From assembly GCA_021201825.1 (NCBI GenBank), contig JAJQED010000001.1, positions 27,785 through 91,784 on the forward strand: 64,000 nt of DNA. Reading direction: 5' to 3'. The notes under the pieces are model-generated. The model was given only the letters and a program-made list of their open reading frames with translations, was not told the DNA's origin and did not search any database. Shown here piece after piece: positions 7,987 to 33,313 of this stretch. The translations under genes were made by a program, and so were the position numbers. Each line of letters begins with the position of its first letter. Position 1 is the first letter of the stretch. The DNA is from Alistipes sp. GTDB taxonomy: Bacteria > Bacteroidota > Bacteroidia > Bacteroidales > Rikenellaceae.

Positions 7987-8988
7987 TTATGATGATAATG
8001 GATTGGGTTTTACTCGCTTTTTCTTTCTGATGATCTTATTGTATAGCTTATACCGTTGCATCGCGATCAGATAAAGATCACCGCCCCGACTTTTAAGATA
8101 CTTCCGGAATTCCTTTATTTCCCGGCGGGCCTTAACAGGATCCGCTTCATGGAGTGTCCCGAACATTACGGTAATAAAGTCGTTCATTACCATGGCTACC
8201 CCGTATCCGATGTTCAGCCCTATAGCACTTTCATCCGTGGAATGCCTCTCGGTATAGAAGTCCACCAGTTTTTTACAAACGTATTTACAATCGTCGAAAT
8301 GTTTTACAAAGCCGGCAGCGCTTACACTCTGGCCCTCCCGTCCCAAATAATATTTGTAAACCACCAGGTCCAGGAATACAATAGTGCGGACATGGGCTAT
8401 CGGGCATAAAACGTATTCCATATCGCTGTAATAACAATGGCTCAATCGGAAACCGTCTTTGCGCAGAATTTCTGTTTTATAAGTCAGGGAATGCATCGAC
8501 AGTACAGGCCGGGATATCTTTTCCTGGATAAGGAACCGGCGGAAATCGTACGGCTTTTCGTATTCCACGAAATAATAGACCGGAACGGAACGCTCGTTCT
8601 TGACATATTCCTGAGAAAAATGAGTTATTATCAGGTCGGCCTCGTGATATTTCAGTTTACCGACATACTCGATAAAAGACTCCGTATCGAACCAGTCGTC
8701 GGCATCCAGTGTCTTGAAATATTTACCAAATGCCTGGTCTATGGCAAGGTTTATCGCGGAACCGTAACCCCCGTTCTCTTTGTCCAGTACCCTGACGGAA
8801 GCAGGATATCTTTTTTCATATTCCCGGGCGATTTCGAGCGAACCGTCGCGGCTCCCGTCATTTACTATCATTATTTCAATATCGTCCAGTACATGCGGGG
8901 AGAGGACCGAATCGACGCACCGCCGCAAATAGGACTCCATGTTATATGTGGCAATGGCGATCGACAATATTTTCCGCTCTCTGACCAT
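7987..8988 (-). CDS. family 2 glycosyltransferase
   Basis: 333 aa with LSIAIATYNMESYLRRCVDSV...IMIVNDGSRDGS...LDADDW (GT-A fold with a DxD). Confidence 0.8.
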   Translation of the reverse strand: MVRERKILSIAIATYNMESYLRRCVDSVLSPHVLDDIEIMIVNDGSRDGSLEIAREYEKRYPASVRVLDKENGGYGSAINLAIDQAFGKYFKTLDADDWFDTESFIEYVGKLKYHEADLIITHFSQEYVKNERSVPVYYFVEYEKPYDFRRFLIQEKISRPVLSMHSLTYKTEILRKDGFRLSHCYYSDMEYVLCPIAHVRTIVFLDLVVYKYYLGREGQSVSAAGFVKHFDDCKYVCKKLVDFYTERHSTDESAIGLNIGYGVAMVMNDFITVMFGTLHEADPVKARREIKEFRKYLKSRGGDLYLIAMQRYKLYNKIIRKKKRVKPNPLSS

Positions 8989-8990
8989 GT

Positions 8991-10010
8991 TTATCTTTTT
9001 GAGAACACCACCATTTGGGGGATTTCTTTATTGCCGGAACACAAAAAGATCCTCCGCCATCTATTGAATTTCTTTTTTTTGATTTTCTCTATCTGTACTC
9101 TGGTGCTGTCATACAGTTCCAAGTCCGTATTGATAAGCGTTTCGGCGAATTGTTCCATTTTTTCCCATATATATTTCCTGTCGGACCTGCAGTTTACGGT
9201 CAAAGTAAGGGAGATAGTAAACCCGATAAACGTAGATATATGGAATCGGATCTCCCTTGTCAGGCCGTTCACTTTACCTGCGTAATATCGGGAATAATGA
9301 TCGGTAAGGTTACGGCATACGGTTAGACGGCCCGCGAAATCTTTCCTGACATTCCCCGGCAGGACCGCAGTCTCTATCATCGAACTGCAAACCGGAGCAT
9401 TGATAAACGCCAAATTCCTTAGCTGTGCCAAAGGCAAAATCAAGTATTCCTGGACGGTATAATCTCCAGTACCGAAACTTACTTCCTTACTGCGTAATAA
9501 GTCCGTGCGGTATGTTATAGCGGGTAAAAAGAGGAAGTAGCCGCTCAGGTTTTCAATCCCGTCATCGGGAAGATCGTAGACCCGGTTGAAATATATCTTG
9601 AAATAGTTTATGGCAAACCGTTCGCCCGTTTCTTTATTTTCTTTTGTAAATTGATTCAATATAAGGTCCACTTCCAGCTCCCGTAGTCTGCGGGTGTATA
9701 CCATAAATGCAGTATCGTTTATCCGGTCTGGCGCTTCGAGTATTTTAAAGTATTTTCCCTTAGCTTCATTTACTGCCGTAACGAGTGCCTCGCCGAATTC
9801 ATAACCCCGGCCATCCAATACCCGGATAGATCCGGGATATCGGTTTCCCGCTCCAGAGATAACGGACCTGATGTAACTTTCATCGCCGCAAATCAGGATC
9901 TCTGTATCCTTTTCGATCTTTGCGCAGGATAGGGAGTCGAGACACCCACCAAGCCATTTGTGATGACGTACAGGGACGAAAATGGCCAGGGTCAATAATA
10001 TTCGATCCAT
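8991..10010 (-). CDS. divergent GT2-like protein, paralogous in layout to the neighbouring GT2
   Basis: 339 aa with a similar length and layout (LTLAIFVPVRHHKWLGGCLDSL..., ILEAPDRIND), but the DxD region is degenerate. It lies 2 nt upstream of the GT2 gene. Confidence 0.5.
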   Translation of the reverse strand: MDRILLTLAIFVPVRHHKWLGGCLDSLSCAKIEKDTEILICGDESYIRSVISGAGNRYPGSIRVLDGRGYEFGEALVTAVNEAKGKYFKILEAPDRINDTAFMVYTRRLRELEVDLILNQFTKENKETGERFAINYFKIYFNRVYDLPDDGIENLSGYFLFLPAITYRTDLLRSKEVSFGTGDYTVQEYLILPLAQLRNLAFINAPVCSSMIETAVLPGNVRKDFAGRLTVCRNLTDHYSRYYAGKVNGLTREIRFHISTFIGFTISLTLTVNCRSDRKYIWEKMEQFAETLINTDLELYDSTRVQIEKIKKKKFNRWRRIFLCSGNKEIPQMVVFSKR

Positions 10011-10033
10011 TCGTCTCGGGTCGTGGAAACATA

Positions 10034-11176
10034 TTATTTGAATTTCATGATCACAAGCACCGGGTTGTCCTCTTCATTTACATGTTCGAGTTTTTTCATA
10101 AGCTCGTCCGAAAAACGGCCCTCACGCCTTATCAGGTCCACCCTTGTGGCCGGGATCATATTCACGGCAATATTACCGGAAACATAATTGGGTATCGACT
10201 CCCGGGTTATCTGATGACGACGTCCTTTGATCTGGGAATCTATAATGTCCGGATGATAAACGATCTTTTCCTGTTTGTCATACACATAGTCCGTGGCATC
10301 GAAGTCGGTATCTTCCACCGATTTCATTTTCTTGATCGAAGAGGCGAAAATATACCTTTCGGTTTCTTTAGCCATAAAAAGGAAAACTTCGGGGTCCATA
10401 TCCGTTACGGAAGGTGTCCGGGTCAAAACGGGTTTTTTAATACCGTCGTAACCCAGGAAATAAGTAGTGTCGGAGGAGAATTCCATAATATAGCAGCCAC
10501 CGGGAGCCTGGGGTATACGGTCGGAATGTATACTACTCAGGCCTAATATCCTGCCGTCCGGCAGGTTGATTGTCGTATTTTTCCGGATTTTGATCTCGTA
10601 CGGGATGCCGATCTTAGAGACGACGCTTCCGTTCTCCTTGGATATTATCGTAAAGGGTTCTTGGTTTTGGTCGGCTTCACTGTACAATATTATATTATCA
10701 CCGAAATCGCCCATTGCGGAATACCGGGCCGAATCTAACGGAAACGACCTTTTGTATTCTCCCTCGGGATCATATACCAATATATTATTTTTCTGACCAT
10801 TCAAAACGAATAACTCTTCCTGGGTGTCGTCGCAAAACATATCGGTTACCGAAATGTATTCCTGCGGCCCGGGACCCTTGCGGTTAAAACTGCTGTAAGC
10901 CTTGCCGTTACGGGTAAACAGCTGAATATCACCGGTGTTCGGATTTCTGAAAGAGATATATTTTTCCCCTAAAGAATAAACATCACCCTGGACAAGAAAT
11001 CCTTTTTTTGTTTCCAGCGGCACATATTCAACGTCGGCGATATCTTGAATGGTAATGGTTTTAACTTTATAGGAGCCGGTCACGTTTATATTGGGCAGGT
11101 CGCCGGTTTGTTTTTCCCGGCAGCCGAAAAGGCATCCGGTAAGAAGCAGTGCCGATAGGAGAAGAAATTTTTTCAT
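10034..11176 (-). CDS. lipoprotein, probable 6-bladed beta-propeller (BF3164-like family)
   Basis: Signal peptide plus lipobox (MKKFLLLSALLLTGCLFGC). The repeated beta-rich segments include the RKGPGPQEY motif typical of this Bacteroidales family, as I recall it. Confidence 0.65.
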   Translation of the reverse strand: MKKFLLLSALLLTGCLFGCREKQTGDLPNINVTGSYKVKTITIQDIADVEYVPLETKKGFLVQGDVYSLGEKYISFRNPNTGDIQLFTRNGKAYSSFNRKGPGPQEYISVTDMFCDDTQEELFVLNGQKNNILVYDPEGEYKRSFPLDSARYSAMGDFGDNIILYSEADQNQEPFTIISKENGSVVSKIGIPYEIKIRKNTTINLPDGRILGLSSIHSDRIPQAPGGCYIMEFSSDTTYFLGYDGIKKPVLTRTPSVTDMDPEVFLFMAKETERYIFASSIKKMKSVEDTDFDATDYVYDKQEKIVYHPDIIDSQIKGRRHQITRESIPNYVSGNIAVNMIPATRVDLIRREGRFSDELMKKLEHVNEEDNPVLVIMKFK

Positions 11177-11192
11177 TGGATTAAGGTTAAAT

Positions 11193-12395
11193 TTAACTTA
11201 AGTTGCAAAGATCGGGTTTTTGTAAAACCAGCTCATAATTTGATATTGGAGGACACATCCATCTATATATACAATCACGGCAGGGCATCCTGTCCCGTAA
11301 CATCCTCCAGGAAGTTCCGGTTATGATCTCCTTATACAGAATATCGTACAGCGGGTCTTCGATCCGGCCCAAGGCCGGGTGGTTAACGTTGGCATGGACC
11401 GTGCCATCGGGTAATACTACCAATCTTCCGAAAAAATTGCTGTTCAAGGTCTGCCGGGCGAATATATCGCGTTTTGTTAATTTTGCATTCCGTAGATCAT
11501 CCTCCTCCACAAAAACGCATCTCCTAAAAAAATCGAGATTATTACCGGTAAAAAAAGGCCTTTTCTCTATGTTATAATTGTCGGATATCCGGGCCGCCTT
11601 TTCATAATCCCTTTCCGACCTGACCGGGATGATCCACTTAATATTCCCGATGTTTGTAATTTTCCGGGTATCATCCGGATACTCCGTTAAGACCGTAAAT
11701 AGTATATCATCGGCGATCATCGATCCAACCGTTGTAATATTCTTAAAGAAAGAATCCGCTCCGATTATGACCGTAACCGGAAGCGTGCTTTCCTGCTGGA
11801 TCCACTGCCGGAAGTCCGCGAATTCGGGATGGGAAAATATATCCCCCGCCAGGTTTACCATCCCCAAGTTCTCACTTCCTTTACAGTTATTTATGAATTC
11901 AGCGACTTTTCCAACGGACAGGTCGTCTTCCGATCGCATTGGGGAAAGTAATTGCTTATGATAATCGGGATGGACGGAGTTGTCCCCGTTGATATGTAAT
12001 GTTACTTCGTGCAAGTAGGAGATTATCTTGCCCGCTTGCTGCCTCGAGTGCATTTCCTGTATATCATCCACACCCTCGAGAAGTTTAAGTATGGGGGGGA
12101 GGGAGGCCGGCCGTGAGTCCGGACCGGTATTAGCCGTTAAATCTCCGGCCCCGATCGAAATTATATTGTCGATCCATTCCCTGATGTGCTCTTTCTCGAG
12201 ATCCGATCCATCGATCTTTACGGAATATAGATTGTCCGGCTCGGATAATTCCTTGTAAATGGTGGTAATATATTTATCGATGCCGAATGTAAAATAGCGG
12301 TTGTTCCCGGTATTATATATCAACCCCTTGTTTTGCCCGATCCAGAAAAAAGTATCACTATTCAGGTTCAGCCAGTATGAATGCGGTTTGATCAT
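11193..12395 (-). CDS. 'pseudo-rSAM' / SPASM-domain partner protein
   Basis: 400 aa with no CX3CX2C triad anywhere. The C-terminus has a SPASM-like CRDCIYRWMCPP. It overlaps the rSAM maturase stop by 4 nt (12392-12395). Confidence 0.65.
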   Translation of the reverse strand: MIKPHSYWLNLNSDTFFWIGQNKGLIYNTGNNRYFTFGIDKYITTIYKELSEPDNLYSVKIDGSDLEKEHIREWIDNIISIGAGDLTANTGPDSRPASLPPILKLLEGVDDIQEMHSRQQAGKIISYLHEVTLHINGDNSVHPDYHKQLLSPMRSEDDLSVGKVAEFINNCKGSENLGMVNLAGDIFSHPEFADFRQWIQQESTLPVTVIIGADSFFKNITTVGSMIADDILFTVLTEYPDDTRKITNIGNIKWIIPVRSERDYEKAARISDNYNIEKRPFFTGNNLDFFRRCVFVEEDDLRNAKLTKRDIFARQTLNSNFFGRLVVLPDGTVHANVNHPALGRIEDPLYDILYKEIITGTSWRMLRDRMPCRDCIYRWMCPPISNYELVLQKPDLCNLS

Positions 12396-13651
12396 ACCTT
12401 AAAAGTTGTTTCAACCAGGATACGTTTGTAAAAATGTGGTCTTCTTTTCAGGTTTTCCATGATTTCTTTGACGGCTTCGGTTTTTGATTGTGTCGTGATG
12501 AAACTGGGACAGTTAACATTATCATCCTTTACATTATCAATATGAAAAATACATACCGGACATAAAAACCCCGCATCACAAACACTGCACTGGCCGATAA
12601 ATTTTCTCAAATACCCGTTGAACAATTCAGCTATCTTCACACTGTCCAGATTTACTCCAGCCGAATCGACATTACCCATTGCGAAAACGTGGTCGATCTT
12701 TTCACAAGGTAGGATTTTGCCGTTAACACTAAGGAACATTTTTTTTGTAAAGGGAGTGCAGGTTACCGTTGGAATTACTCCTGTAACATTCCTATCATAC
12801 ATCAGATCGTTATAATCCCTAAAACCATTACCGGATTCGAAAACAACATATTTCCCCAATTCATAAACTTCGGGAGCTTCCAGGTATATATTTTCGATAA
12901 GTTGGCCGCAATTGTCTGTTTGCCGGATATCGTAGTGTTTGTTCTTATATGTACGGCGAAACTCCTCCCTTTTATCGGCCCTTATCCCACTTGGAGATAA
13001 AGTACCAATGGAAGGGGATTTTCCGAAAGTTCCATAAATATATTTATGGATTGACTCGACACTGTTTTTATTATGCAAAACGGAATTGAACCTCACATGC
13101 CTGTCGAAATATTCCGGATATTTTTCCCGTAACGCAAATATATTCGCCATTACACGGTCGTGAGAGTTATTTCCGGCATGGTCGACCCGGTGGCCGTTGC
13201 TCTCTCTGTCCCCGTCAAGGCTTATTAAAAGGTCGAACTGTTTCTCTACAAGATAGTCCATGGACCGGTCCAGAAGCATGGCATTTGTGGTCATTCCAAA
13301 TCTCAGGACCCGGGGAATATCCAGGTTCTGCATGTAATCGACGATCTCCCGGATGAGTGACAAATTAAGGAGAGGCTCGCCTCCGTAGAAACCAACGGCC
13401 AAGGGTCGTTGAAAAGACCGGTGGCCATTATTTTTCCAAAGACCGGCCAGATGATCGATCAATTTACGGGCAATATCGAAAGAAAGGAATTTACCCTGCC
13501 GCTCATCGTATCCCGTATAAAATTCCGAAAATGAACAATACCGGCAATTTAGGTTACACGCATCGGTTACCTCGAAAACAAGATTTTCCAGATGAAAGAT
13601 ATTATTTTCAATTGTAAATGGGTTTACATTTACCAGGTGTGTTTTGTTCAT
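12392..13651 (-). CDS. radical SAM / SPASM peptide maturase
   Basis: 419 aa. The CX3CX2C motif is TDACNLNCRYCSF. The C-terminal SPASM motif is GKILPCEK...CSVCDAGFLCPVC. It sits immediately downstream of a Cys-rich small ORF. Confidence 0.85.
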   Translation of the reverse strand: MNKTHLVNVNPFTIENNIFHLENLVFEVTDACNLNCRYCSFSEFYTGYDERQGKFLSFDIARKLIDHLAGLWKNNGHRSFQRPLAVGFYGGEPLLNLSLIREIVDYMQNLDIPRVLRFGMTTNAMLLDRSMDYLVEKQFDLLISLDGDRESNGHRVDHAGNNSHDRVMANIFALREKYPEYFDRHVRFNSVLHNKNSVESIHKYIYGTFGKSPSIGTLSPSGIRADKREEFRRTYKNKHYDIRQTDNCGQLIENIYLEAPEVYELGKYVVFESGNGFRDYNDLMYDRNVTGVIPTVTCTPFTKKMFLSVNGKILPCEKIDHVFAMGNVDSAGVNLDSVKIAELFNGYLRKFIGQCSVCDAGFLCPVCIFHIDNVKDDNVNCPSFITTQSKTEAVKEIMENLKRRPHFYKRILVETTFKV

Positions 13652-13675
13652 TTATTAGATTGGTAATAATTTCAC

Positions 13676-13748
13676 TTTATGGACCCGGGGAAGTCCATAA
13701 AATAAATTCGAAGCTTACAAAAGGTTACCGGCAATTGCCGGTAACCTT
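13676..13748 (-). terminator. two hairpins (terminator/attenuator) between the precursor and the maturase
   Basis: A 28-nt perfect palindrome aaggttaccggcaattgccggtaacctt (13721-13748) lies 5 nt after the precursor stop and is followed on the minus strand by TTTTGT. A second 9-bp hairpin pairs 13676-13684 with 13693-13701. Confidence 0.6.
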
Positions 13749-13753
13749 AATTT

Positions 13754-13991
13754 CTAATAACTCCCGCTTGTATTAGTTTGAGTGGAACCGCCGGCATCTG
13801 ATGTCCTTGAACTGAGTTCTCCTTCATCGACACATGCACAGACACATCCGCATTTACAATTACCCAACCTGCCCCGTCCATCTCCGTCACCCCCGCGTCC
13901 GTCCCGGCCTCCGACTATCATGGTTTTTTCCCTGTTGCTCAATTTCCTCTTTCGAAAGTTGAGCAAGGCTTAATTTCTGGATCTTTTTCAT
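13754..13991 (-). CDS. RiPP precursor peptide (GG leader plus Cys-rich core), apparently frameshifted at an A6 run
   Basis: ATG at 13991 gives MKKIQKLSLAQLSKEEIEQQGKNHDSRRPGRTRG*. The +1 frame continues (K)TMIVGGRDGRGGDGDGRGRLGNCKCGCVCACVDEGELSSRTSDAGGSTQTNTSGSY* to 13754. The two frames join at the A6 run (plus-strand T6 at 13924-13929). Confidence 0.6.
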
Positions 13992-14222
13992 TAGTTTGGA
14001 TTTAATAGTTAGTATTAATCGACCGCTTAATAAAGGGCGGTATCTGGTAAGTGTCTGGTTTAAATATTAGTAGTCCTTGCAATTTAGGGATACAGCTGTG
14101 CTATTGGATTTGTTTTGAGATGATACAGGAAATCGGATTAAGTTTGGGTTGTTATGGGTCGGGAATAAAAATATAAAACTTTATTCAAAAAACAAACATT
14201 GTGTCGGGTTTACTAAAGTAAT

Positions 14223-14822
14223 CTAAAGATTTTTATACAGGATGCCGTCGTCGAAATAAAGGCGGCGAAGCATTGCGCATGTTTCCGGGTCGACATTTTT
14301 ATCAGCAGCTATTCGGACCTGGCTGTCTTTCATCCCGAAAAGGTTCATTATAAATTGCCAGTCTGCAAGTGATTCATACTTCAGTATAATTGTAGAATTG
14401 TCGAAATAGCAGCTTTGCGGCAGGAACCACGGACGGGAATAATTCCTAAGGAATGAGTCCTGCACCCGGTAATTCTGGGCAAGAAGAAATTTACATATTT
14501 TGTTGGGGTCGTGGTCAAGGGAGGAAAAAACCTTATTCAGTTCCCCGTCCAAGCCGGCCCCCGTCTTTATTGCCGAAACGAACCTGTTATATGGATTGCG
14601 CACGAAAGTTATGAACTTATAATCCTTATAATCCGGAAAAAACCGTGGTATGGCCTTAATATGTATATGCGAGGTGTCCAGATTTGTTTCGGGGTTAGGC
14701 AATGACCAGTATAACGAAAAAGAGTAATTCGGGTGGTGCCGCTCGTATTCTTTTTGCAGAAAGGTGCCTCCGCATTTCGGATTATGCAGGTATATTGTTT
14801 TGGTCAGTTCGTGAACGATCAT
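14223..14822 (-). CDS. sulfotransferase (family-2-like, PAPS-dependent)
   Basis: 199 aa. The 5'-PSB loop is LHNPKCGGTF and the 3'-PB-like motif is FVRNPYNRFVSAI. Confidence 0.7.
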   Translation of the reverse strand: MIVHELTKTIYLHNPKCGGTFLQKEYERHHPNYSFSLYWSLPNPETNLDTSHIHIKAIPRFFPDYKDYKFITFVRNPYNRFVSAIKTGAGLDGELNKVFSSLDHDPNKICKFLLAQNYRVQDSFLRNYSRPWFLPQSCYFDNSTIILKYESLADWQFIMNLFGMKDSQVRIAADKNVDPETCAMLRRLYFDDGILYKNL

Positions 14823-14865
14823 GACAGGTTCGTTTTAAGCTTTTATTAATTACGGTATTAAAAAA

Positions 14866-15405
14866 CTACCGGGTATATATCGGAATGAAATATTTATCCT
14901 CCGTGACAAGGTAGATAAACTCCGGGGTACTGAAGAAACAGTGACCCTCTCCGGCGGTTGCGACCAAATTCTCGAACTGTGCTATCTCTTCACGGGAATG
15001 CTTGTCACATAGCCGGGCCAGAATACCCGTATGGCGGAAATAATTGTCGGAATAAAGCTCGTACAGAAATGAAATAAGGTATATCCGGTTCAGCGGCAGC
15101 ATCTGTTCGTATATCTCTTCGACAATGGAAAGGAATAACCCGAGGAACCGTTCCGTACGGAATTTGTTTAAATCGCACCGGTACATCTGGACAAGTATGT
15201 GGATAGCGGTAAATAGTTCGTTATCCGGAAAGAAAACCGTTGAGAGAGGCCGCATCTGTTCCGAAGATAGCTTTACTCCGGTACCGCCGGACAAAGCGTG
15301 GAACATATCCAGGTTGAGCAACAGGCTATGTTCCAGCCTTTTCTTTATGAGACTGTCCTCGGTGTAGGGTTTGGACCGATAACGTCGAATAAGGTACGTA
15401 CCCAA
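14866..15405 (-). CDS. hypothetical protein, possibly the C-terminal part of a frameshifted gene
   Basis: 179-aa ORF with a TTG start. It overlaps the upstream ORF by 61 nt in another frame. No motif recognised. Confidence 0.4.
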   Translation of the reverse strand: MGTYLIRRYRSKPYTEDSLIKKRLEHSLLLNLDMFHALSGGTGVKLSSEQMRPLSTVFFPDNELFTAIHILVQMYRCDLNKFRTERFLGLFLSIVEEIYEQMLPLNRIYLISFLYELYSDNYFRHTGILARLCDKHSREEIAQFENLVATAGEGHCFFSTPEFIYLVTEDKYFIPIYTR

Positions 15406-15779
15406 GACGACAAAATATTTATACCGTATGTATTATAGGTTAAAACTTCCCGAACCGTATTATCGAAATCCTCAAGAATAAAGTCAATGTCTCCGTCGAT
15501 AAATCGCTGTTCCCAGAGATATTGCAAACCCCAACCGATTCCTGGAATCCCGGTAGAGAACGGCAAGGAAAATTTTTTGAATTGAAAGCCGATAATGTCC
15601 TCTAAAAGTTCTCCGGCCTGTTCTTCCAGTTGTGAGGAGTTTGTTTGCCGGGACAGGCAGTATAGCACAAGGGCACTTCCTGTCAGGCCGTCTTTCAATC
15701 CCGGGTTAATATCGGGTTTTTTCGACCTGATAGCTGCGGCCCGCTCGAGCAGGATGTCCGTGGGTGTTTGTTTTATCAT
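15345..15779 (-). CDS. hypothetical protein with weak LanC-like Gly-rich helix-repeat signatures
   Basis: 144 aa. GLKDGLTGSALVLYCL and TGIPGIGWGLQYLW are reminiscent of alpha-toroid LanC repeats. The similarity is not verifiable here. Confidence 0.4.
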   Translation of the reverse strand: MIKQTPTDILLERAAAIRSKKPDINPGLKDGLTGSALVLYCLSRQTNSSQLEEQAGELLEDIIGFQFKKFSLPFSTGIPGIGWGLQYLWEQRFIDGDIDFILEDFDNTVREVLTYNTYGINILSSWVRTLFDVIGPNPTPRTVS

Positions 15780-15830: not shown

Positions 15831-18800
15831 CTAATTCAAAGGCTTATTTTTTCTTTCCATCGGCAGGAATACGGGGAGGAATATAACGAGCGATACCAGC
15901 GAGAAGAGCATCCCGCTGATCCCGCCCATCGCGAACGAGTACCAGAAGACGTCCGACGGTCCGTAATAGATAAACGGCAGCAGTCCCACAACGGTAGAGG
16001 TGACTGTCAGCAAAATTGGTATGATCTTCCGGTTATAGGAGGTCAAAAAGATGCGCAGTCCCGAGATATTTTTACCCGTGCGTTCGATTATGCTGTACTC
16101 GTTTACGATGTAAATTCCGGCGTTGACCACCAGTCCGCACAGCAGTATAAAAGACGCGAATCCGCCCTGGTCGAACGGTATGCCGGCCATTCCGAACGTT
16201 AAGAACGCTCCGATAAATGATACGGGGATCATCAAAAGTATCACGAGCGGTTTGCGGAGGGACTCGAAAATAATGGCGCAGAGGAAATAGAAAATAAATA
16301 CCAGGATCCAGGCGGGAGTCGCGGCCTCGCTCAAATCCCATTCGAAATCGGTACTTTCCGCACGGTAACCGATAGGGAGGGTTTCCGTGTTCAATCTCTC
16401 GAGGGTCCGGCGCATAAGTCTTCTTCCCAGCTCGCCGTCCCCTATAAAGTCGAAACCGACAAATAGCTGGTAGGACTGGTTGAGCTTGTGAATATCGATG
16501 CCCGTGTTACGCTTATCGATATCGGCGAAAGAAGAGAGCTTCACTTCCATGGAATCAACCGGGAGCGGGTTGTTTTTAATGTTCCACAGGTCGAATTCCT
16601 CCCTGAGGGACGACGCCAGGATTACTTTTTCCTGCCTGCCGTCTATGAATACCGGGGATAGTTCCGTGGAAAAAAGCAACTGGCGCAGGTAGCTGAAATA
16701 GCCATTCAGGTCAATACCTTTTTCGACCGCTACCGTTTTATCGATCCCGATAAAATATTCCTGTTCCGGGACTGCCCACTCCATTTGGCCGTATATCTGC
16801 GGTTCGAATACGCGCATATTGCCCGAGAGACTGTCGGCCAAATCTTCGGCATATTTCATGAGCAGGTCGAAATTGGGCCCCGTGAGCTTTATTCTCCTGG
16901 ATTTGAGCCCGCTGAAAACCGAGTTGTTGAACCTTTGGTCATCTATCCCGGTTACGCTCCAGGTGGCTCCCCCGTTCATGATGGCCATGCCGATGACTTC
17001 GCCCTTGATCCGGGACGGCAGTTCCGTATTGTCGTACTCGTCCTTGAAAGTGACCTGGATGGATGCGTTCTTATGGGACAGGACACTGGTCCGGAACATA
17101 TCGATCTCGTCGTACCCGGCCAGGAAATTCTCCATGTTCCGGACCAGTTCGTCGAGTTGGTGGACGGTACATCCCTCCGGCATACCTGCCCGGATGGAGA
17201 GGGTCGGTTTCCCCGGCTCGCGGTAGATGCCCGACTTGGCAACCGTAGTGTGGAAGACCCTGAAAGAACCTCCCAGGATCTTCTCGAAAGTTTCTTTTTT
17301 GGATTGGTAGAACGGGGAGCCGACTGTCTTGTTATAGAATTGCACCCACTTCTTTTCCTGCCCCGACGAGATCCGGTTTGGCAGCATGTGGATGGGGATT
17401 CCGAACGCAAGTATCAATATTACCACGTAAAGCCATCGCCGCTTCCTGCTCCATGAAATAAATCCGGCATATGCCCGGTTGAACCTGACGATACGCCTTT
17501 TTGTCCCGGGCTTTATATTTACCATCCCCACCGCTGCCGGCAATTTATCCAACAGAGAGGGAATGAAGAGCAATGAAATAAAAAGGGAAACGACCAGGTT
17601 GACTATTATTACGACCGCGAAATCCAGCAGGTTTTCTTTTTGCTCTTCCGGCAGCAGGAATATAACGCAAAGGGCAGCTATGGTGCTCATCAGTGCACCC
17701 AGGATCGCCGGGAATACCCTCTTGTCGCGATAATAAGCGTAATGGTCCGTCATTATGATGGAGGTGTCTATTATCAGCCCGAGCGAAACGGTGATCCCGG
17801 CCAGGGTATATATATGTATAGGCAGGTCGAGGAGTTTATAAAAAATGAAAGCGACAAGTATATTGGCCACAAGGGTCAGGAAAATTATCAGCAGGTAGCG
17901 CAGGTTGCGGTTGGCCGCAAAAACAACGGCAAGCAAAATCAGGAGGGTGGCGATCGTCCTCAGCCCGATCCTTGATAGTTCTTCGGTAACGTACTCCGAC
18001 GAATCGTATGTCAGCATAAGGGAGGTCTCGGCCGGGAACACTTCCCGCAGTTGGTCCATCTGCCGGCGTACCTCCGCTGCCACTTTAATCAGGTTGCTTT
18101 GCCTCCCGGCAAAAATATTAAGGTTTACGGCATTGAGCCCGTTAATGCGGTAATAGGAATCCGGTAGGGTTTCGCGGTAATCGATCGTGGCTATATCCCT
18201 GAGGTGGATTATCCTGCCGCCGACCAGTTTGATGGGTATCTCCCCGAAATCCCCGCGAAGATCTGCGGATAATTTCACGGGCACCGTCAAATCTTCACCC
18301 TCAGTATAAACATTCCCGGCGGTTCCCTCCCGGGAGATGTCATTGAAAGCGGTGGCTATCTCTTCTGCCGTGATGCCGTAAACGCGGGTCTTTTCGGGAT
18401 CGAAGCTGATTATGTATTCATAAGGTGTTATGCCGTAAGTCTGTATATCGTTTATACCGTTGATCATGGACAGGGCCGGGATCACGTGTTTTTCAATATA
18501 CTCCCCGACCTCCCGGGAGGGAAGCCGCGAGTTTATGGTATACGACATTATCGGACTCTCTTCCAATCCGGCGACTCCGAGCGAAAGGGCGGGGTATGAA
18601 ACCCCGTCGGGCAGTGACGGGTAAACGGAACGTATCTGTGAGGAGACCTCGAAACGGGCCACGTCCATCTTCGTCCCTTTCTTGAATTCCACCCGGATCT
18701 CCCCGGAGCCTTTACGGGAAACAGACGAGATTTCACTTATGCCGCCTACCCGGGACAGCACCCCCTCGAGCTTCGAGGTCACTTCCTGTTCGATAAGCCT

Positions 18801-18965
18801 CGAAGAGACGTCAGGCCAGTTGTAGGTGACATTTATGGTATTGGAACTTTTATCCGGGGTATACTGTATATTGAACAGGGGGATCATAGCTGCGCCAATT
18901 ATCATCAGCACCACCATGACCAGTATTACCGAAAACGACGACATCCCGTGCCGCGGATTTTCCAT
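15831..18965 (-). CDS. RND efflux permease (AcrB/HAE family)
   Basis: 1044 aa with a 12-TM layout and two large periplasmic loops, paralogous to the adjacent permease. Confidence 0.9.
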   Translation of the reverse strand: MENPRHGMSSFSVILVMVVLMIIGAAMIPLFNIQYTPDKSSNTINVTYNWPDVSSRLIEQEVTSKLEGVLSRVGGISEISSVSRKGSGEIRVEFKKGTKMDVARFEVSSQIRSVYPSLPDGVSYPALSLGVAGLEESPIMSYTINSRLPSREVGEYIEKHVIPALSMINGINDIQTYGITPYEYIISFDPEKTRVYGITAEEIATAFNDISREGTAGNVYTEGEDLTVPVKLSADLRGDFGEIPIKLVGGRIIHLRDIATIDYRETLPDSYYRINGLNAVNLNIFAGRQSNLIKVAAEVRRQMDQLREVFPAETSLMLTYDSSEYVTEELSRIGLRTIATLLILLAVVFAANRNLRYLLIIFLTLVANILVAFIFYKLLDLPIHIYTLAGITVSLGLIIDTSIIMTDHYAYYRDKRVFPAILGALMSTIAALCVIFLLPEEQKENLLDFAVVIIVNLVVSLFISLLFIPSLLDKLPAAVGMVNIKPGTKRRIVRFNRAYAGFISWSRKRRWLYVVILILAFGIPIHMLPNRISSGQEKKWVQFYNKTVGSPFYQSKKETFEKILGGSFRVFHTTVAKSGIYREPGKPTLSIRAGMPEGCTVHQLDELVRNMENFLAGYDEIDMFRTSVLSHKNASIQVTFKDEYDNTELPSRIKGEVIGMAIMNGGATWSVTGIDDQRFNNSVFSGLKSRRIKLTGPNFDLLMKYAEDLADSLSGNMRVFEPQIYGQMEWAVPEQEYFIGIDKTVAVEKGIDLNGYFSYLRQLLFSTELSPVFIDGRQEKVILASSLREEFDLWNIKNNPLPVDSMEVKLSSFADIDKRNTGIDIHKLNQSYQLFVGFDFIGDGELGRRLMRRTLERLNTETLPIGYRAESTDFEWDLSEAATPAWILVFIFYFLCAIIFESLRKPLVILLMIPVSFIGAFLTFGMAGIPFDQGGFASFILLCGLVVNAGIYIVNEYSIIERTGKNISGLRIFLTSYNRKIIPILLTVTSTVVGLLPFIYYGPSDVFWYSFAMGGISGMLFSLVSLVIFLPVFLPMERKNKPLN

Positions 18966-18968
18966 ACC

Positions 18969-21900
18969 CTACCTGTTCTTGTGAATTATATAATAAAATA
19001 TCGGTACGAAGAATATGCTGACAAATGTCCCGACTGCCATACCCGTAATGACCGCAACCGAGAGGGGATACTGCAGGTCGGAACCCATTTCCCCCCTTGC
19101 CAGGAAGGGGGTGATGGCAAGGATGGTGGTCAGCGAGGTCATGATTATCGGTTTCAACCTGCGCTGGCCGGCCTCCATGATAGCCCTTTTCAGCGATCTG
19201 CCGCTTCGGCGCAGTTTATTGATGGTGTCCACCTTGAGTATGGAGTCGTTTATCACGATCCCGCATGTTACCACTATACCGATAATGGACATAATATTTA
19301 ACGACAGCCCCAGTATCCACAACACCAGCAGTATCCCGAAGATGTCGATCACCATCTCGGACAGTATGATAAAGGGTTGCACGACGGATTCGAACTGCGC
19401 CGCAAGGATGAAATAGAGCAGCAGTACAGCTACCCCGAGCACCATGATAAGCTCCCACATTATCACGCGGTTGCTGAAATATCCTCCGCTGAAGCTAACT
19501 TCGAAATCGTCGTTGTGTGATATCGCCTCCCGTATCCGTTCCATTACCCCGGGAACATCCCGTTCGGGTATGTCCAACTCCAACGGATAGAAATTTCCTT
19601 CGGGTCCCGCCGTTATGTATTTAAGGTCCTGTCCGCGTGTTTGCCGCATGAATATGGATACCGGCAGGTAGGTGCCGTTCTTGCGGATGGTCGCTCCCCC
19701 GACTATCTCCGCCAGCCCGCTTTTGTTGTCCCCGACGATGACCGGGAGGTAAAAGCGTCCCTGGATTATGGTAAACAACTGGTTCTCGTTGAGGGAATTT
19801 CGCAGGACGTTCAACAATTCGCCGTAAGTTACTCCATACAGGGACATGATCTCGGGGCGGGTTACGTAGAGTATGTGTTCCTGCCATGACGGCATGTCGA
19901 TTTGCACTTCGGGCAGGTGTTCCGACAGGGAGACTATTGCGCCGTTCAGTTGGTTCGGATCCGGTGCCTTGCCGGAAGTGGGGCGCAGGCGGGCTACAAG
20001 CGGGGCCTCGTTGCTGCCGAAAACCATGTCGAATATATTGCCGGAAAGCTCGAACCCGTAGGAGGCCAGCGGATAACGGGCGTCCAGATATTCCGATACT
20101 GCCGCTTCGATGTCGCCGATGGTATAGCCGTCTTGCTCTTTAACGTAGACCACCGCCTCCGATGTGCCCATCCGCCGGGTATGGTCCAGCATGAATTGCT
20201 GTATACCCGCCATGGTCGTGGTTTGCGAAGTCATGTCGTCGATCTGCCCCATGAGCAGCCCCAGCCGCCGGTCGTTCTCTTCCACCGTGATGCGTTCGTT
20301 CCAGTCTATATTGACCAGCATGTCCCGGTATGTTATTTCGGGTAGACGGTCTTTCCCGATCTGGGAAAAAAGCAAAATGCTCCCCGCCACCGATACCGGG
20401 AAATAGAGCCACATGATCCAACGACGCCGGAAGAAAAATTTAAGGGTCCGGTCGTAGGAGGGGATCAATCTGTCGAACGATATTTTTTGCAGGAAGCGGT
20501 TACCCGATATCCCGTCCTGTCTGCGGAACATTAGGAAATAGTAGACCGGGATCACGGTAACGGTCACCCCGAGCGAACAAAACAGTGTGATGGCGACCGA
20601 AAGGGCCTGGTCGTAAAACAGCATCCCGGCAATGCCGCTAAGGAAAATCAGGGGTAAAAATACGGCACAGGTCGTAAGTACCGAACTGAGCATCGGGAAG
20701 AATACCTCGCCGGTCCCTTTCACAACTGCCTGTCGCAGGCTGTATCCGTTGCTCCAACGGTAGGTGATATTGTCGATCACTATTATGGAGTTGTCGACCA
20801 TCATGCCCACACCCAGGATCAACCCCGACAACGACACTATGTTGATCGATATTCCGAACAGGTAAAAGAATAGCATCGAGCAGATCAATGCTACGGGCAT
20901 CGTCAACACGATCAATAGCGCTGAACGCAGGTTCTGCATGAACAGCAGGATAATGAGGCTCGCCAGTATGACGCCGAATATTATGTTGCGCGTCAGGTTG
21001 TTGATCGAATAATCCAGCAGTTCCGTCTGGTCGCGGGTGAGGGTGAACTCTATGTCGGGGTAATCCTCCGAGAAGCTTTCCATCAGCCGGAAAATATTCT
21101 TTTTAAGGCGGGCCATCTTTGCCTCCGACTGTTTGATCACGGCCAGTGATACGGCCATCTTACCGTCGGAAGTGACGATATTGCTTCGCCGCCGGGGATG
21201 CTCGATAACCGTTGCCAGTTCCCCGATCCGGTAGATACGTCCCGAGACATTAATATAGGCCTGCTCGATATCCTCTTTCCCGGTCGCCGCGCTTTCCACC
21301 TTGACGTTATACTGGTATTCCCCGTCCCGTATCGTAAGGTTGCCCATCCCGAAGTTGACCGCGCTCACCGCATTCTCGAACTCCCCGATCGAGAGGTCTA
21401 TCTCATGGAGTTTGTTCCGGTCCGGGATTATCAGTATCTCGGGAACCACATACCCGGAAAGGTCGACCATGGCCACTTCCGGCAGCTGTTCTATCCGCTT
21501 GACGATAACATGGGAAGCGAAACTGCTTAGCTGTGAGAAACGCTCGGAGACGGGAAAGATCCCTTCGCCAGCTGCCGGCGCCGTATCGTTCCTTACCGAG
21601 AGGTTGATATAAAACGCCGGAATGTCTGTCGCCCCGGCCTTGAGTACCGTCGGCCGGAGCATGTCGCGCGGCAGGGAATTCATCGAACGGTCGATCTTTT
21701 CGTTCACCTCGACGAACAGGTAGTCCGAGTTGACCCCGTGGTCAAAAGAGAGGGTGATGGTCCCGCTGCCGTCTTTGGTCTCGGACCGGATATCCCTGAG
21801 TCCCGATAGCTGCAATAGCTGCTGGCGCAACTGTGCCATGACCGACTCATCCAATTCGCGGGCGGAGTGCGACGGATAGGATACCTGAACGCTGATATAC

Positions 21901-22022
21901 GGAATGTCCACCGAGGGTATCAGCGAGACCGGAAGCATATTAACGCTCACGATACCGAGCACAACCACCATGATCAGGGACATGGTTACGGCGATGGGCC
22001 TGTCTATGAGCTTGTTCAGCAT
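18969..22022 (-). CDS. RND efflux permease (AcrB/HAE family)
   Basis: 1017 aa. It starts MLNKLIDRPIAVTM, has GVGMMVDNSIIVIDN, and ends with a typical C-terminal TM bundle. Confidence 0.9.
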   Translation of the reverse strand: MLNKLIDRPIAVTMSLIMVVVLGIVSVNMLPVSLIPSVDIPYISVQVSYPSHSARELDESVMAQLRQQLLQLSGLRDIRSETKDGSGTITLSFDHGVNSDYLFVEVNEKIDRSMNSLPRDMLRPTVLKAGATDIPAFYINLSVRNDTAPAAGEGIFPVSERFSQLSSFASHVIVKRIEQLPEVAMVDLSGYVVPEILIIPDRNKLHEIDLSIGEFENAVSAVNFGMGNLTIRDGEYQYNVKVESAATGKEDIEQAYINVSGRIYRIGELATVIEHPRRRSNIVTSDGKMAVSLAVIKQSEAKMARLKKNIFRLMESFSEDYPDIEFTLTRDQTELLDYSINNLTRNIIFGVILASLIILLFMQNLRSALLIVLTMPVALICSMLFFYLFGISINIVSLSGLILGVGMMVDNSIIVIDNITYRWSNGYSLRQAVVKGTGEVFFPMLSSVLTTCAVFLPLIFLSGIAGMLFYDQALSVAITLFCSLGVTVTVIPVYYFLMFRRQDGISGNRFLQKISFDRLIPSYDRTLKFFFRRRWIMWLYFPVSVAGSILLFSQIGKDRLPEITYRDMLVNIDWNERITVEENDRRLGLLMGQIDDMTSQTTTMAGIQQFMLDHTRRMGTSEAVVYVKEQDGYTIGDIEAAVSEYLDARYPLASYGFELSGNIFDMVFGSNEAPLVARLRPTSGKAPDPNQLNGAIVSLSEHLPEVQIDMPSWQEHILYVTRPEIMSLYGVTYGELLNVLRNSLNENQLFTIIQGRFYLPVIVGDNKSGLAEIVGGATIRKNGTYLPVSIFMRQTRGQDLKYITAGPEGNFYPLELDIPERDVPGVMERIREAISHNDDFEVSFSGGYFSNRVIMWELIMVLGVAVLLLYFILAAQFESVVQPFIILSEMVIDIFGILLVLWILGLSLNIMSIIGIVVTCGIVINDSILKVDTINKLRRSGRSLKRAIMEAGQRRLKPIIMTSLTTILAITPFLARGEMGSDLQYPLSVAVITGMAVGTFVSIFFVPIFYYIIHKNR

Positions 22023-22031
22023 GACGTTGCG

Positions 22032-23102
22032 CTATTCGGCCGGTTGAACCGGTGACCCGTCGGCCAGGTTGAGGTTGCCCGAGACGATGATCCGGTCTCC
22101 CGCCTGCAGGTCGGCGCCCCGGGAAGTGTTGGCGGTAACCACATAAGAATCGCTGTTCTCCATCACCGTATGCACATAGGTCCATACAGCCCGGCCGTTG
22201 TCGTAGCGGAAAAGCACCTCCAGGTTGTTCCGTATCACCACCGCATTTTTCGGGACCACAAGCTGCCCGGGGACACTGTTCTCGACCAGCACTTTGACGT
22301 TCATCCCGTCCATAAATCCACGCGGAACATTATGTATACGGGCCTTGACGGCTATCTGTCCCCGGTCGTCTATGGTAGGGTTGATGCTCGTAACGGTGCC
22401 GGTTCCTCGTTTTTCCGGTTCGAAAAAAGGAATGACGGTAATTCTCTGTCCTACTTTCACGAAACCCAGTTCGCTCTCCGTAACCGTGAAATCCACATCC
22501 ATCTCCGAATCGTCTATAACGGTACAGAGCTCGGCCTCGGTTTTTTCGAAAGGCTTGCTTTTCAGGTTGGCGACCTTGCCGGAGAAAGGGGCGCGGATCG
22601 TGCAGTTGGCCAGGTTGAGCCGTGCCTGTTCGAGGTTGGCCACCGCCATGTTATAACCGGACCGGGTCTTTACCGTCGCACGCGATTCCTCGGCCAGAAG
22701 AGACGTATCCGGCCTCTCGAGCCCGAATCCTATTACGGCGTCCGCAAGGTCGATCCGTGCCTGCTCCATGTTGATCGTTGCGGTATTGAGCTGGTTGACC
22801 GCCGTTTGCGTATCCAGAACGGCCAGTATCTCCCCTGCCTGCACCTGCTGTCCGTTCTCTACCGGAATACTTGCGATCATCCCTTCGGTCGGGTATCCGA
22901 TCACGCTCTTACGGCGGGCGCTCAGTTTGCCGTTGCTTAACATCTGGCGGTGGAAAGAAGTTTCGGCGAGGGTCATTATTTCCACTATATTCGACTCCTG
23001 GATATGTTCCTGTCTGGCCATTTCGGCCGTTTCCGTATTCCCTTTACTTCGGCACGAACAAAAAACGAGCGCGGCCAGGACCGGTAGCAGATATATTTTC
23101 AT
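22032..23102 (-). CDS. RND efflux periplasmic adaptor (MFP/HlyD family) lipoprotein
   Basis: The start at 23102 gives MKIYLLPVLAALVFCSC (lipobox). It has coiled-coil hairpin and beta-barrel segments and IRAPFSGKV. Confidence 0.85.
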   Translation of the reverse strand: MKIYLLPVLAALVFCSCRSKGNTETAEMARQEHIQESNIVEIMTLAETSFHRQMLSNGKLSARRKSVIGYPTEGMIASIPVENGQQVQAGEILAVLDTQTAVNQLNTATINMEQARIDLADAVIGFGLERPDTSLLAEESRATVKTRSGYNMAVANLEQARLNLANCTIRAPFSGKVANLKSKPFEKTEAELCTVIDDSEMDVDFTVTESELGFVKVGQRITVIPFFEPEKRGTGTVTSINPTIDDRGQIAVKARIHNVPRGFMDGMNVKVLVENSVPGQLVVPKNAVVIRNNLEVLFRYDNGRAVWTYVHTVMENSDSYVVTANTSRGADLQAGDRIIVSGNLNLADGSPVQPAE

Positions 23103-23600
23103 AAAAGACAGATTATCGGGTTCACGGGTACCGCCGGCCGGCCGGATGAAATATACCGGTTCCAATTCGGCGTGCCGGAGCTGTTCAGGCAGGGCAGGGT
23201 CGTTCTTTCAGGGTGTCGTATCGCCGGGAATTTCGACCCCGTTTGATCCATGTATACCCTGGAGTGTAGAAATACTTCCCACCGTTCACCGGCTGGCAAT
23301 ATTGTAATGGTAAAAATTTTCATTTCCAGGGTTTGTGGATTTAGGAAAAACAGGGTCGTAAAGCCAAAAATAAGAATTATTATTTTAATGCTTCCATAAT
23401 GCCGGAAATTATTAGGCATCAAACCTATCCCTGCTGAACCCCGTGAGCAGGTTGCTTTTTATTTTCGCGAGGGAACAGGTCGGAATAAACGCAAACGAAA
23501 TTTCGGCAATAAGGCCCATACAGCCAGGCCCCGGGCGGACTGCTAATTCGAACAAGTCGAAGAACTGATCTTCGGAGGGTGTAAAGTTCTTTAAGTACGG

Positions 23601-23670: not shown

Positions 23671-24219
23671 TTATTTTTTCAGATCGTACTTGAACCCTTT
23701 CAGCGCATCATCCGAATAGATATGCAGGCTGTGGCCCGTATCGCTCAGGCAGGTGATACGGTGGATATGGTTCTTATAATCGTCATTTTCACCGATGGCA
23801 AAGAAACACTGCTGGTCGTAAACCACTACGGCGTTCACCAGTTTGGCTTCCGATTCGCTCACCGGTTCGAATATCTCGATAAGGAATTCACCGTCGGCTA
23901 TCGTATAGCTGGCAAACCGGGGGTGAGAATGAATGGCTGTGCGGTTGCCTTTTTTCCAGGACATTACGATGGCTTCCCAGCCGCTGCGGTCATTGCGGCC
24001 GATGTAGTTACGCACGTAGGTAGAGTCGTCGAAGTTATTTATGGCCAGCGGATTACGGCGGACGTAATCCAGAACATATTCCCTAATGGCGTTGCCCAGT
24101 TCTTCGGTAATGTCCCGGCCGCTGGTAATCGAGTCCAGTCCGGAGAAGAAATCTTCATAACCGGTATGCACGGAAAGACCCGGCTTAAAATCGGTGGATA
24201 GACGGTTGTCGTTATTCAT
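23671..24219 (-). CDS. cupin-fold protein (cysteine-dioxygenase-like metal site?)
   Basis: 182 aa. WKKGNRTAIHSHPRFASY...GEF resembles the cupin G-x5-HxH motif. Confidence 0.5.
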   Translation of the reverse strand: MNNDNRLSTDFKPGLSVHTGYEDFFSGLDSITSGRDITEELGNAIREYVLDYVRRNPLAINNFDDSTYVRNYIGRNDRSGWEAIVMSWKKGNRTAIHSHPRFASYTIADGEFLIEIFEPVSESEAKLVNAVVVYDQQCFFAIGENDDYKNHIHRITCLSDTGHSLHIYSDDALKGFKYDLKK

Positions 24220-28505: not shown

Positions 28506-29885
28506 ATGGCAGCAACAACCTATATACTCACCAAGACGGCTAACAGTGCGGGGGAATGTCAGATAATCCTGCGGACTTACATTCGGCATGATTACCGTAT
28601 GCGAATACAATCCCGCATTTGGGTAAGCCCTAAACGATGGGGCAAAAAGAATGGCATAACTATACCGGCCACACCGGGAGAAGAACAAGAGCAGTTAATC
28701 GAGAAAAAAGAATTACTCCAAAAACTTACTCGATATATCGAGGATGAACTGAAGCACGAAGAAGATAAAAATAGCCTGGAACGTATTTGGGGAGAAAAGA
28801 AGGTTGCAGCATTCTACAAGCCGACGAAAACAACAAAAGAAAGGGTAAAAGACTTTTTCGGTATAGCCCAGGATTATCTTGCCAAACATAAGCTATCCGA
28901 ATCCCGCGTTAAACATTTCAATGTCTTGATACGATGCCTAAAGAGGTATGAACTATATAAAAGGGCAACCGGTAGCCGGGCTTTCAAACTTAATATAAAT
29001 ACGCTGTCCTACGACCAGCTTGCCGATATTGAAAACTTCCTTACTAACGAGCGGGAGGTGTTTAAGTCCCACCCGGAAATATACGAGGCCATACCGTATT
29101 CTACAAAACAGTCAAAAATGACTTATACGCTAAAAAAAGATAGCGACAAACCTAAAGGAATGCCGAAAGAGCGCGGCCAGAATTATATCTCGGATATGAT
29201 GACACGGTTCCGGTCGTTCATAATTTGGGCGAACGACAACGAATACACCACTAATAATCCTTTCAAAAACTACCCGGTCGGTGAAAGCGTGTACGGTACG
29301 CCAATCTATATAAGCAATGATGAAAGAAAAAAGCTCTATGAAACCGATATGTCTGATATACCGTCGGTTGCCGTTCAACGTGATATTTTTGTTTTTCAAT
29401 GTCTTATCGGATGCCGCGTAAGCGACCTATATAAATTTACGTGGAAGAATGTTATAAACGGTGCGATTGAGTATATCCCCAAGAAAACTCGCGAGGACAG
29501 GGTGCAGACCGTCCGGGTTCCATTGAGCGATACGGCGAAAGAAATTATAGAACGTTACCGTGATCTGCACCGGGAAAGCCTTTTGCCTTTTATCTCATCG
29601 CAGAAATATAATGACAATATAAAAGAGGCATTCAAAAAAGCCGGACTTGACCGTATGGTAACTATTATCGACCAACGGACACGGCAAGAGGTGCAAAAGC
29701 CGATTTATGAGGTCGCATCTTCACATATGGCACGGCGGAGCTTCATTGGTAATATTTACAAACAAGTCAAAGACCCTAACCTGGTCGGAGCATTGAGCGG
29801 CCATAAAGAGGGTAGTAAGGCGTTCGCGCGTTACCGTGACATCGACGAGGACATGAAGAAGGAGCTAATCGGTTTTCTGGATTAA
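28506..29885 (+). CDS. tyrosine site-specific integrase (Bacteroides type with an N-terminal arm-binding domain)
   Basis: 459 aa. The C-terminal catalytic region has CLIGCRVSD..., SSHMARRSF, GHKEGSKAFARY. It lies adjacent to attL. Confidence 0.9.
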   Translation: MAATTYILTKTANSAGECQIILRTYIRHDYRMRIQSRIWVSPKRWGKKNGITIPATPGEEQEQLIEKKELLQKLTRYIEDELKHEEDKNSLERIWGEKKVAAFYKPTKTTKERVKDFFGIAQDYLAKHKLSESRVKHFNVLIRCLKRYELYKRATGSRAFKLNINTLSYDQLADIENFLTNEREVFKSHPEIYEAIPYSTKQSKMTYTLKKDSDKPKGMPKERGQNYISDMMTRFRSFIIWANDNEYTTNNPFKNYPVGESVYGTPIYISNDERKKLYETDMSDIPSVAVQRDIFVFQCLIGCRVSDLYKFTWKNVINGAIEYIPKKTREDRVQTVRVPLSDTAKEIIERYRDLHRESLLPFISSQKYNDNIKEAFKKAGLDRMVTIIDQRTRQEVQKPIYEVASSHMARRSFIGNIYKQVKDPNLVGALSGHKEGSKAFARYRDIDEDMKKELIGFLD

Positions 29886-29932
29886 CTACACATTGTCAGT
29901 TATTTATATTTATTTTGCGAAAACGGCACATT

Positions 29933-30913: not shown

Positions 30914-30915
30914 TA

Positions 30916-32154: not shown

Positions 32155-32197
32155 TAACTTAGAAGGACATATTAAAAAAAGATTATATCTTTGATGT

Positions 32198-32803: not shown

Positions 32804-33004
32804 CAACCGGAATAAATCGGCTACGAAGGGATTTACAGCAATGTAAATCCCTTTTGCTTTTTATTTCTTTTATAAATAGTCGGTTACAAATGGGGATTGA
32901 AACACCCAACAAAAACTTTTTCCCCGCAATTACTCCTCGTACTCTTGTCCCGGATTCACACGAATCTGCCTGTAAAGGCTTTGTAAAACTTTAAAACTTT
33001 TGTT

Positions 33005-33313
33005 ATGAATTACAAAGAATTGCTGGAGTCCGGGGCGAACGTAAGCGTTACCGTTGGACTGGATGACCTGCGAGAGATTTTTAAAGAGACCGTCAGCGGT
33101 CTAAAACCCGAATCGGCTCATCCGCAACCGGAAGAATTTCTAAGCCGTAAAGAGGTTCTGGCCTTACTGCAAATCGACTCTTCAACCTTATGGAATTGGG
33201 AAAAGACAGGTTATATAAAGTCTTTCCCCTTCGGTGGCCGCAAACGGTATAAACTGGAAGATGTCGAGGCAATCCGCACAGGGAAGAAAGGAGGACGCAA
33301 TGGAAAACAATAG
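33005..33313 (+). CDS. helix-turn-helix (MerR/excisionase-like) DNA-binding protein
   Basis: 102 aa. LSRKEVLALLQIDSSTLWNWEKTGYIKSFPFGGRKRYKLEDVEAI matches the Xis/MerR-type HTH pattern. Confidence 0.6.
   Translation: MNYKELLESGANVSVTVGLDDLREIFKETVSGLKPESAHPQPEEFLSRKEVLALLQIDSSTLWNWEKTGYIKSFPFGGRKRYKLEDVEAIRTGKKGGRNGKQ

Follow-up and report, generated by a model that had tools for sequence, protein, structure and literature searches.

A precursor gene split at an A6 run in a GG-Bacteroidales radical SAM RiPP cassette of Alistipes: probably a fixed mutation rather than a programmed frameshift

In the genome of an uncultured Alistipes, a small gene resembling a peptide precursor is divided between two reading frames, and the two frames meet at a run of six A's. 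The question is whether this split is an error of the assembly, a device that controls the output of the peptide, or simply a mutation. We addressed it in a stretch of 64,000 nucleotides (64 kb, hereafter the window), and all positions given below are those of the window. The split gene consists of the following features.

13887 to 13991, minus strand: leader-frame ORF, 34 codons and TGA; a TIGR04149-type leader followed by 12 out-of-frame residues (TIGR04149, 20.8 bits over residues 1-20)
13924 to 13929, minus strand (plus-strand T6): A6 run where the leader and core frames meet, with one A more than the in-frame gene
13754 to 13927, minus strand: core-frame segment with KTMIVGG, the 16-aa Gly/Arg/Asp spacer, CKCGCVCACV, the C-terminal tail and TAG
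13907 to 13912, minus strand: double-glycine motif that closes the leader and is read in the +1 frame alone (G27-G28, the same in all aligned sequences)
13859 to 13906, minus strand: Gly/Arg/Asp spacer RDGRGGDGDGRGRLGN, 16 aa
13829 to 13858, minus strand: Cys-rich motif of the core, CKCGCVCACV, on which the rSAM maturase presumably acts (comparable CxCxC motifs in all relatives)

The leader ORF MKKIQKLSLAQLSKEEIEQQGKNHDSRRPGRTRG starts with the ATG at 13991-13989 and ends with the TGA at 13889-13887. In the +1 frame, KTMIVGG is followed by the spacer, by CKCGCVCACV and by the tail DEGELSSRTSDAGGSTQTNTSGSY, which ends in SGSY before the TAG at 13756-13754. As encoded, the leader, the GG and the Cys core are not in one ORF, and the stop at codon 34 precedes any GG. 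The first-pass annotation had described this arrangement from the letters alone, and all of its coordinates and sequences were verified, including the plus-strand T6 at 13924-13929. In addition, the deletion of one A gave a 78-aa precursor identical to the one that it had quoted, and this peptide aligns with relatives from other genomes. The two frames are both open only in 13969-13887, and the A6 run is the sole homopolymer of at least 4 bases in this interval before the in-frame IVGG. Thus, the frame change is pinned to the A-run. A6 as such is commonplace, and the window has 39 A6 and 30 T6 runs. We also tried an alternative repair by two additional A's (A8, giving GKKTMIVGG); it had no TIGR04149 match, which is probably an effect of the HMMER filters.

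The genes around the precursor point to a RiPP cassette. They are listed here from the maturase outward.

12392 to 13651, minus strand: intact peptide maturase of 419 aa, of the radical SAM/SPASM type (TIGR04148 score of 459.9 bits, cutoff 300, with 8-409 of the 411 model positions aligned; Pfam Radical_SAM)
11193 to 12395, minus strand: intact pseudo-rSAM partner of 400 aa (TIGR04150 score of 311.5 bits, cutoff 250, with 1-406 of the 407 model positions aligned)
10034 to 11176, minus strand: DUF5128 six-bladed beta-propeller lipoprotein (PF17170, E 5.7e-20), a recurrent accessory of the cassette with homologues in related loci
7987 to 10010, minus strand: two genes resembling family-2 (GT2) glycosyltransferases, past the propeller gene on its downstream side
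13721 to 13748: hairpin formed by a perfect 12-bp palindrome, immediately past the core stop, followed on the minus strand by TTTTG
14223 to 14822, minus strand: 199-aa protein similar to sulfotransferases, next to the precursor on its upstream side (Pfam Sulfotransfer_2, E 2.7e-5)
15831 to 23165, minus strand: a pair of RND-type pumps of 1044 and 1017 aa, of which the 1044-aa one was scanned with Pfam, and an HlyD-like membrane-fusion protein, upstream

The precursor gene is directly upstream of the TIGR04148 maturase, the TIGR04150 partner comes next, and the ORF of the partner overlaps the stop of the maturase. The hairpin at 13721-13748 is likely a terminator or an attenuator between precursor and maturase. 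The RND pumps and the HlyD-like protein are possible export or immunity genes, and no C39 peptidase-ABC exporter was found among the large window ORFs scanned with Pfam. A sigma-70 promoter scan gave no informative result, as expected for Bacteroidota. The G+C content of the RiPP cluster (7987-15779) is 43.9%, compared with 50.3% for the whole window, and this low value fits horizontal acquisition.

Several related cassettes share a recurring set of accessory genes, whose function is nowhere described: LanC-like-fragment proteins with a GIGWG motif (about 200 or 293 aa), GT2/GT4 glycosyltransferases and the DUF5128 propeller lipoprotein. Examples are found at L003:725-2692 and at L026:1523-2152 and 10359-11240. 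Meanwhile, the RND and membrane-fusion genes of the window adjoin, on the upstream side of the cluster, a small cupin protein with a borderline match to cysteine dioxygenase type I (CDO_I; 23671-24219, minus strand). Farther along, 28506-46999 looks like a defence island. In it, an integrase gene precedes the genes of a type I restriction-modification system (S subunit at 40201-41376, a DUF4917 protein, R subunit at 42669-45896), and the abortive-infection gene AbiH is at 45905-46999.

We then considered whether the repaired peptide belongs to the precursor family. It scored 22.6 bits on TIGR04149, and the leader ORF alone scored 20.8 bits (E 2.6e-4), the cutoff being 25. Elsewhere, intact precursors that neighbour TIGR04148 maturases scored 14.6-60.9 bits, and the window peptide is therefore within the range of genuine members. 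At E <= 0.01, the repaired peptide had no Pfam match, PF14406 included. Leu9, G27-G28 and two core Cys are common to the repaired peptide and all eight aligned relatives. In addition, its leader (A5 form) is 28 aa long, equal to the leader of Bacteroides hominis. Given the leader score, the residues in common with the relatives, and the maturase and its partner next door, the resemblance to a precursor is above chance.

The intact relatives have one ORF, in which a leader of roughly 25-28 aa ends in (L/I)xGG and is followed by a CxCxC-rich core, for instance ...ALRGGACGCVCVGYLCACKC (L024) and ...MLRGGQMCFCACV (L026). A single-frame precursor of this leader-GG-Cys-core type was found in every reliably sequenced related cassette (about 20 loci, with L017 left out). 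The first-pass annotation had taken the leader-like ORF and the core ORF as parts of one gene, and indeed both are fused in the relatives. Thus, the window carries a single gene that has become split. Furthermore, no intact allele of the 78-aa peptide was found among 5.8 billion protein clusters, and the split ORFs themselves were not found there either. A small HMM built from four leaders detected no second leader-like ORF in the 64-kb window.

The window cassette differs considerably from its relatives. The nearest relative of the maturase had 50% identity among the 5.8 billion protein clusters, and identities were 33-46% in the genome and metagenome scans. At such distances, the ancestral length of the A-run is unreadable from orthologues, and the architecture alone is comparable. 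In the Bacteroides group, A-runs at a similar position of the leader are A5 or shorter and encode Lys/Asn codons, which vary, through synonymous changes or substitutions, among AAA AAC, AAA AAT and AAA GAA; the tract is thus not maintained. The spacer of the window peptide contains a second GG, and G-rich, imperfect repeats of a GAC-GGA-like type code for it. Such a Gly/Arg/Asp spacer is absent from all eight aligned relatives.

Two observations were made on the related loci. In one of them, L017, the precursor is also split (A5 to A4, at a similar position of the leader). This candidate for a recurrence was dismissed as a sequencing artefact: compared with the near-identical L015, it had 18 gap openings in 7 kb, mostly in short homopolymers, and its pseudo-rSAM gene is fragmented. 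The contig (L017:1-7074, from human gut, coverage about 2.9x) is a poor assembly that imitates biological frameshifts. The other observation concerns L022 (1368-1717), where the TIGR04148 maturase is kept and the pseudo-rSAM partner is reduced to a remnant of about 78 aa. In L023 (1315-2544), the partner is intact (409 aa) and the downstream genes are the same as in L022. L022 appears to be another cassette that is partly decayed.

The precursor is not the only broken gene in the cluster of the window. A LanC-like gene, located 1.4 kb upstream of it, is present as two fragments.

15345 to 15779, minus strand: LanC-like N-terminal fragment, 144 aa (matches residues 26-110 of the 298-aa protein P0124, E 9e-10; weak Pfam LANC_like match)
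14866 to 15405, minus strand: LanC-like C-terminal fragment, 179 aa, in another frame (matches residues 124-289 of P0124, E 5e-17, and residues 126-287 of P0123)

The two ORFs overlap by 61 nt in different frames. When the 179-aa ORF was used as a query in an exhaustive HMMER search, proteins of 290 and 298 aa matched over residues 124-289 only, and the 144-aa ORF also aligned with the LanC-like proteins of related cassettes. One base added anywhere in 15381-15434 restores an ORF of 305 aa. The repair that fits the relatives best lies around 15417-15431, where there is no long homopolymer. In the NCBI annotation, the N-terminal piece stands by itself as a hypothetical protein (LUF87_00185). 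The LanC-like protein may not be required, or it may be functional in two parts, and related clusters carry versions of roughly 200 aa. There are two frameshifts within 1.5 kb, a one-base gain in the precursor and a one-base loss in the LanC-like gene, in differing sequence contexts. Two independent frameshifts in one cluster argue for early pseudogenisation and are hard to square with a designed recoding signal.

To see the A-run in other assemblies, Logan contigs from three sequencing runs were retrieved by exact-protein look-up and compared with the window. These are consensus contigs, which mask minority A5 reads, and the SRR accessions behind all four assemblies, the window included, have close numbers and probably share a study and a platform.

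L001, SRR15221321: 9,260 bp compared, 100% identical to the window, A6
L002, SRR15221362: 5,832 bp compared, 3 SNPs and 0 gaps relative to the window, A6
L028, SRR15221322: 1,828 bp compared, 1 SNP and 0 gaps relative to the window, A6

Position 14163 is C in the window and L001 and T in L002 and L028. Therefore, at least two haplotypes exist, and A6 is present in all of them. These haplotypes are only about 0.05% apart, a distance without the evolutionary depth to reveal relaxed selection. The junction of the LanC-like gene is identical in L001 and L028. The SNPs that part the window/L001 haplotype from L002 are at 14163, 13541 and 9670; the one at 13541 is silent, and the maturase protein of L002 is identical to that of the window. 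A literature search with the SRR accessions found no paper.

These comparisons bear on two explanations given in the first-pass annotation. One was an assembly error, by which the genome would really carry A5 and a normal, unbroken gene. Indel errors typically fall in homopolymers, and L017 shows such an error in a homologous leader. However, A6 occurs in the window and in the contigs of all three runs, in two haplotypes, with 0 gaps over 9.3, 5.8 and 1.8 kb, unlike L017. In addition, the other large window genes that were scanned have full-length domain matches, so the window assembly is not generally frameshift-prone. An assembly artefact at A6 is contradicted by these results, and we consider it highly improbable that the extra A is of this origin. 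The other explanation was reversible slipped-strand ON/OFF switching. Here the A-run would be a contingency tract, the sampled populations would be OFF (A6), and A5 revertants would make the peptide. The position of the frame change exactly in a homopolymer is consistent with this, as are the family-typical precursor obtained by the loss of one base, the intact enzymes and the core frame that is still open. Against it, the tract showed no length variation in the four assemblies (A6 in the window, L001, L002 and L028) and two haplotypes, and no A5 allele was present in the protein database of 5.8 billion clusters. Six A's are short for an efficient contingency tract, and the A-run is not conserved among the relatives. 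Furthermore, the frameshift of the LanC-like gene is in no long homopolymer and would not be readily reversible. Switching is thus an unlikely explanation.

Programmed recoding, also suggested in the first-pass annotation, would need a +1 slip of tRNA-Lys on A-AAA-A or the dropping of one A by RNA polymerase, and a controlled fraction of the product would be full-length. A shift of +1 is what the gene needs: tRNA-Lys on A2-A4 can re-pair perfectly one base on (AAA to AAA, on A3-A5), after which ACC ATG ATA GTC GGA GGC would be read. A short G-rich stretch, CAGGGA, is just upstream of the run, and low-level compensatory frameshifting at homopolymer indels has a documented precedent (Atkins et al. 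2016, PMC5009743). However, the A-site codon of the 0 frame is AAC, an ordinary sense codon that is neither a stop nor rare. The A_AAA_AAC heptamer is in phase for -1, but that shift leads to CCA TGA and thus to an immediate stop, and the core is in the +1 frame. No RNA structure was predicted downstream of the run (136 nt from just upstream of A6, z = -0.35), and no frameshift is conserved among the reliably sequenced relatives. The run has 6 nt, compared with about 9 A/T in the runs described for bacterial transcriptional slippage (Atkins et al. 2016, PMC5009743). The unrelated second frameshift in the neighbouring gene also speaks for mutation over design. Programmed frameshifting and transcriptional slippage therefore find no support, and we regard recoding as very unlikely. 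A further possibility is that both small ORFs are functional, the 34-aa leader acting in trans and a leaderless core being made from the internal ATG at 13921-13919 (MIVGG...). This ATG is directly after the A-run, in the core frame and with an A-rich upstream context. Nevertheless, the arrangement occurs in no relative, the leaderless-core ORF was neither called nor found in databases, and a GG five residues from the N-terminus would be senseless in a leader-dependent system; this explanation is hardly credible. Finally, there is a slim chance that A6 acts as a throttle. One A would occasionally be dropped, whether through DNA slippage in a subpopulation, through RNA polymerase or through a +1 tRNA-Lys slip on A-AAA-A, and the maturase pair, which is otherwise intact, would then give a little of a potentially self-toxic Cys-rich peptide.

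What stands of the first-pass annotation is one precursor gene split at the A-run, whose A5 form has the leader-GG-Cys-core of the family. Of its explanations, assembly error is contradicted, and programmed +1 or transcriptional slippage finds no support. The simplest explanation, a fixed inactivating mutation, was missing from its list.

We propose that fixed inactivating mutations, acquired recently in a decaying cluster, are the probable cause of the split, rather than a programmed frameshift. In the intact system, the leader would presumably dock the precursor on the maturase/pseudo-rSAM pair. The maturase would then cross-link the Cys of the core, as its sub-threshold likeness to the CcpM, SCIFF and PapB maturases suggests, and the leader would be cut off after the GG as the last step. 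A one-base insertion fixed in the population, most parsimoniously from A5 to A6, has thrown the core out of frame. Standard translation therefore halts after 34 codons and yields a leader without a core, and most likely the mature peptide is not made. Meanwhile, the LanC-like gene would have lost one base independently, outside any long homopolymer, with the maturase pair still unhit. The enzymes are intact and the core frame is open with family-typical motifs; thus, either the mutation must be of recent date or the gene could be in use even now. An indel in the A-run is reversible in principle, and further TIGR04149 precursors could be present elsewhere in the genome, beyond the window.

A homopolymer frameshift in a precursor gene is in itself ordinary, and the RiPP family is known, although experimentally uncharacterised. 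The locus is nevertheless a caution for genome mining: judged by its enzymes, the cluster would count as intact, although the one precursor visible in it is broken and so is an accessory gene. In addition, it puts on record a very divergent branch of the family, with a maturase that shares no more than 50% identity with any known protein and with an unusual Gly/Arg/Asp spacer, and the repaired 78-aa sequence could serve for heterologous production. If the throttle were true, this would be the first RiPP precursor in Bacteroidota with its output set by recoding or homopolymer switching. Leaky or switchable production would likewise be a new regulation of a bacteriocin-like peptide in gut Bacteroidota; no finding here points in that direction.

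Among the known frameshifting systems, the window gene is like the prfB type in that +1 is required and the P-site tRNA can re-pair in the +1 frame, and it differs in having no in-frame stop or hungry codon, no conservation and no stimulator. The 'savior indel', exemplified by the G7 run of HSV thymidine kinase (Atkins et al. 2016, PMC5009743), is also a one-base indel in a coding homopolymer, where rare slippage could in principle restore the product. The run of the window is shorter, and there is no evidence of a product or of selection for leakiness. For the enzyme, the window maturase had secondary matches to CcpM (TIGR04068, 194 bits), the SCIFF maturase (TIGR03974, 87 bits) and the ranthipeptide maturase PapB (NF047865, 101 bits), all of which act on Cys-rich cores. 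This analogy suggests thioether cross-linking by the window maturase. However, the scores are far below the family cutoffs, and the window maturase is not a member of these families. In the searchable literature, we found no experimental paper on TIGR04148-04150 and none on the chemistry of a TIGR04148 enzyme.

The closest known system is the GG-Bacteroidales rSAM RiPP cassette, which Walsh et al. (2015, PMC4573289) reported from gut Bacteroides on the basis of in silico work. By its profile matches and gene order, the locus belongs to this cassette (TIGR04149/TIGR04148/TIGR04150; Pfam PF14406), as a divergent member in an uncultured Alistipes. The window differs from the described cassette in its frameshifted precursor, in its maturase with only 50% identity to the nearest relative, in the 16-aa Gly/Arg/Asp spacer between the GG and the Cys motif, in the RND pumps that take the place of the C39-ABC exporter, and in a repaired peptide just under the TIGR04149 cutoff (22.6 against 25). 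Meanwhile, both share the gene order of precursor, maturase and pseudo-rSAM, the leader type MKK...L..LSKEE...GG, the Cys-rich core, the accessory lipoprotein and an HlyD-like protein nearby.
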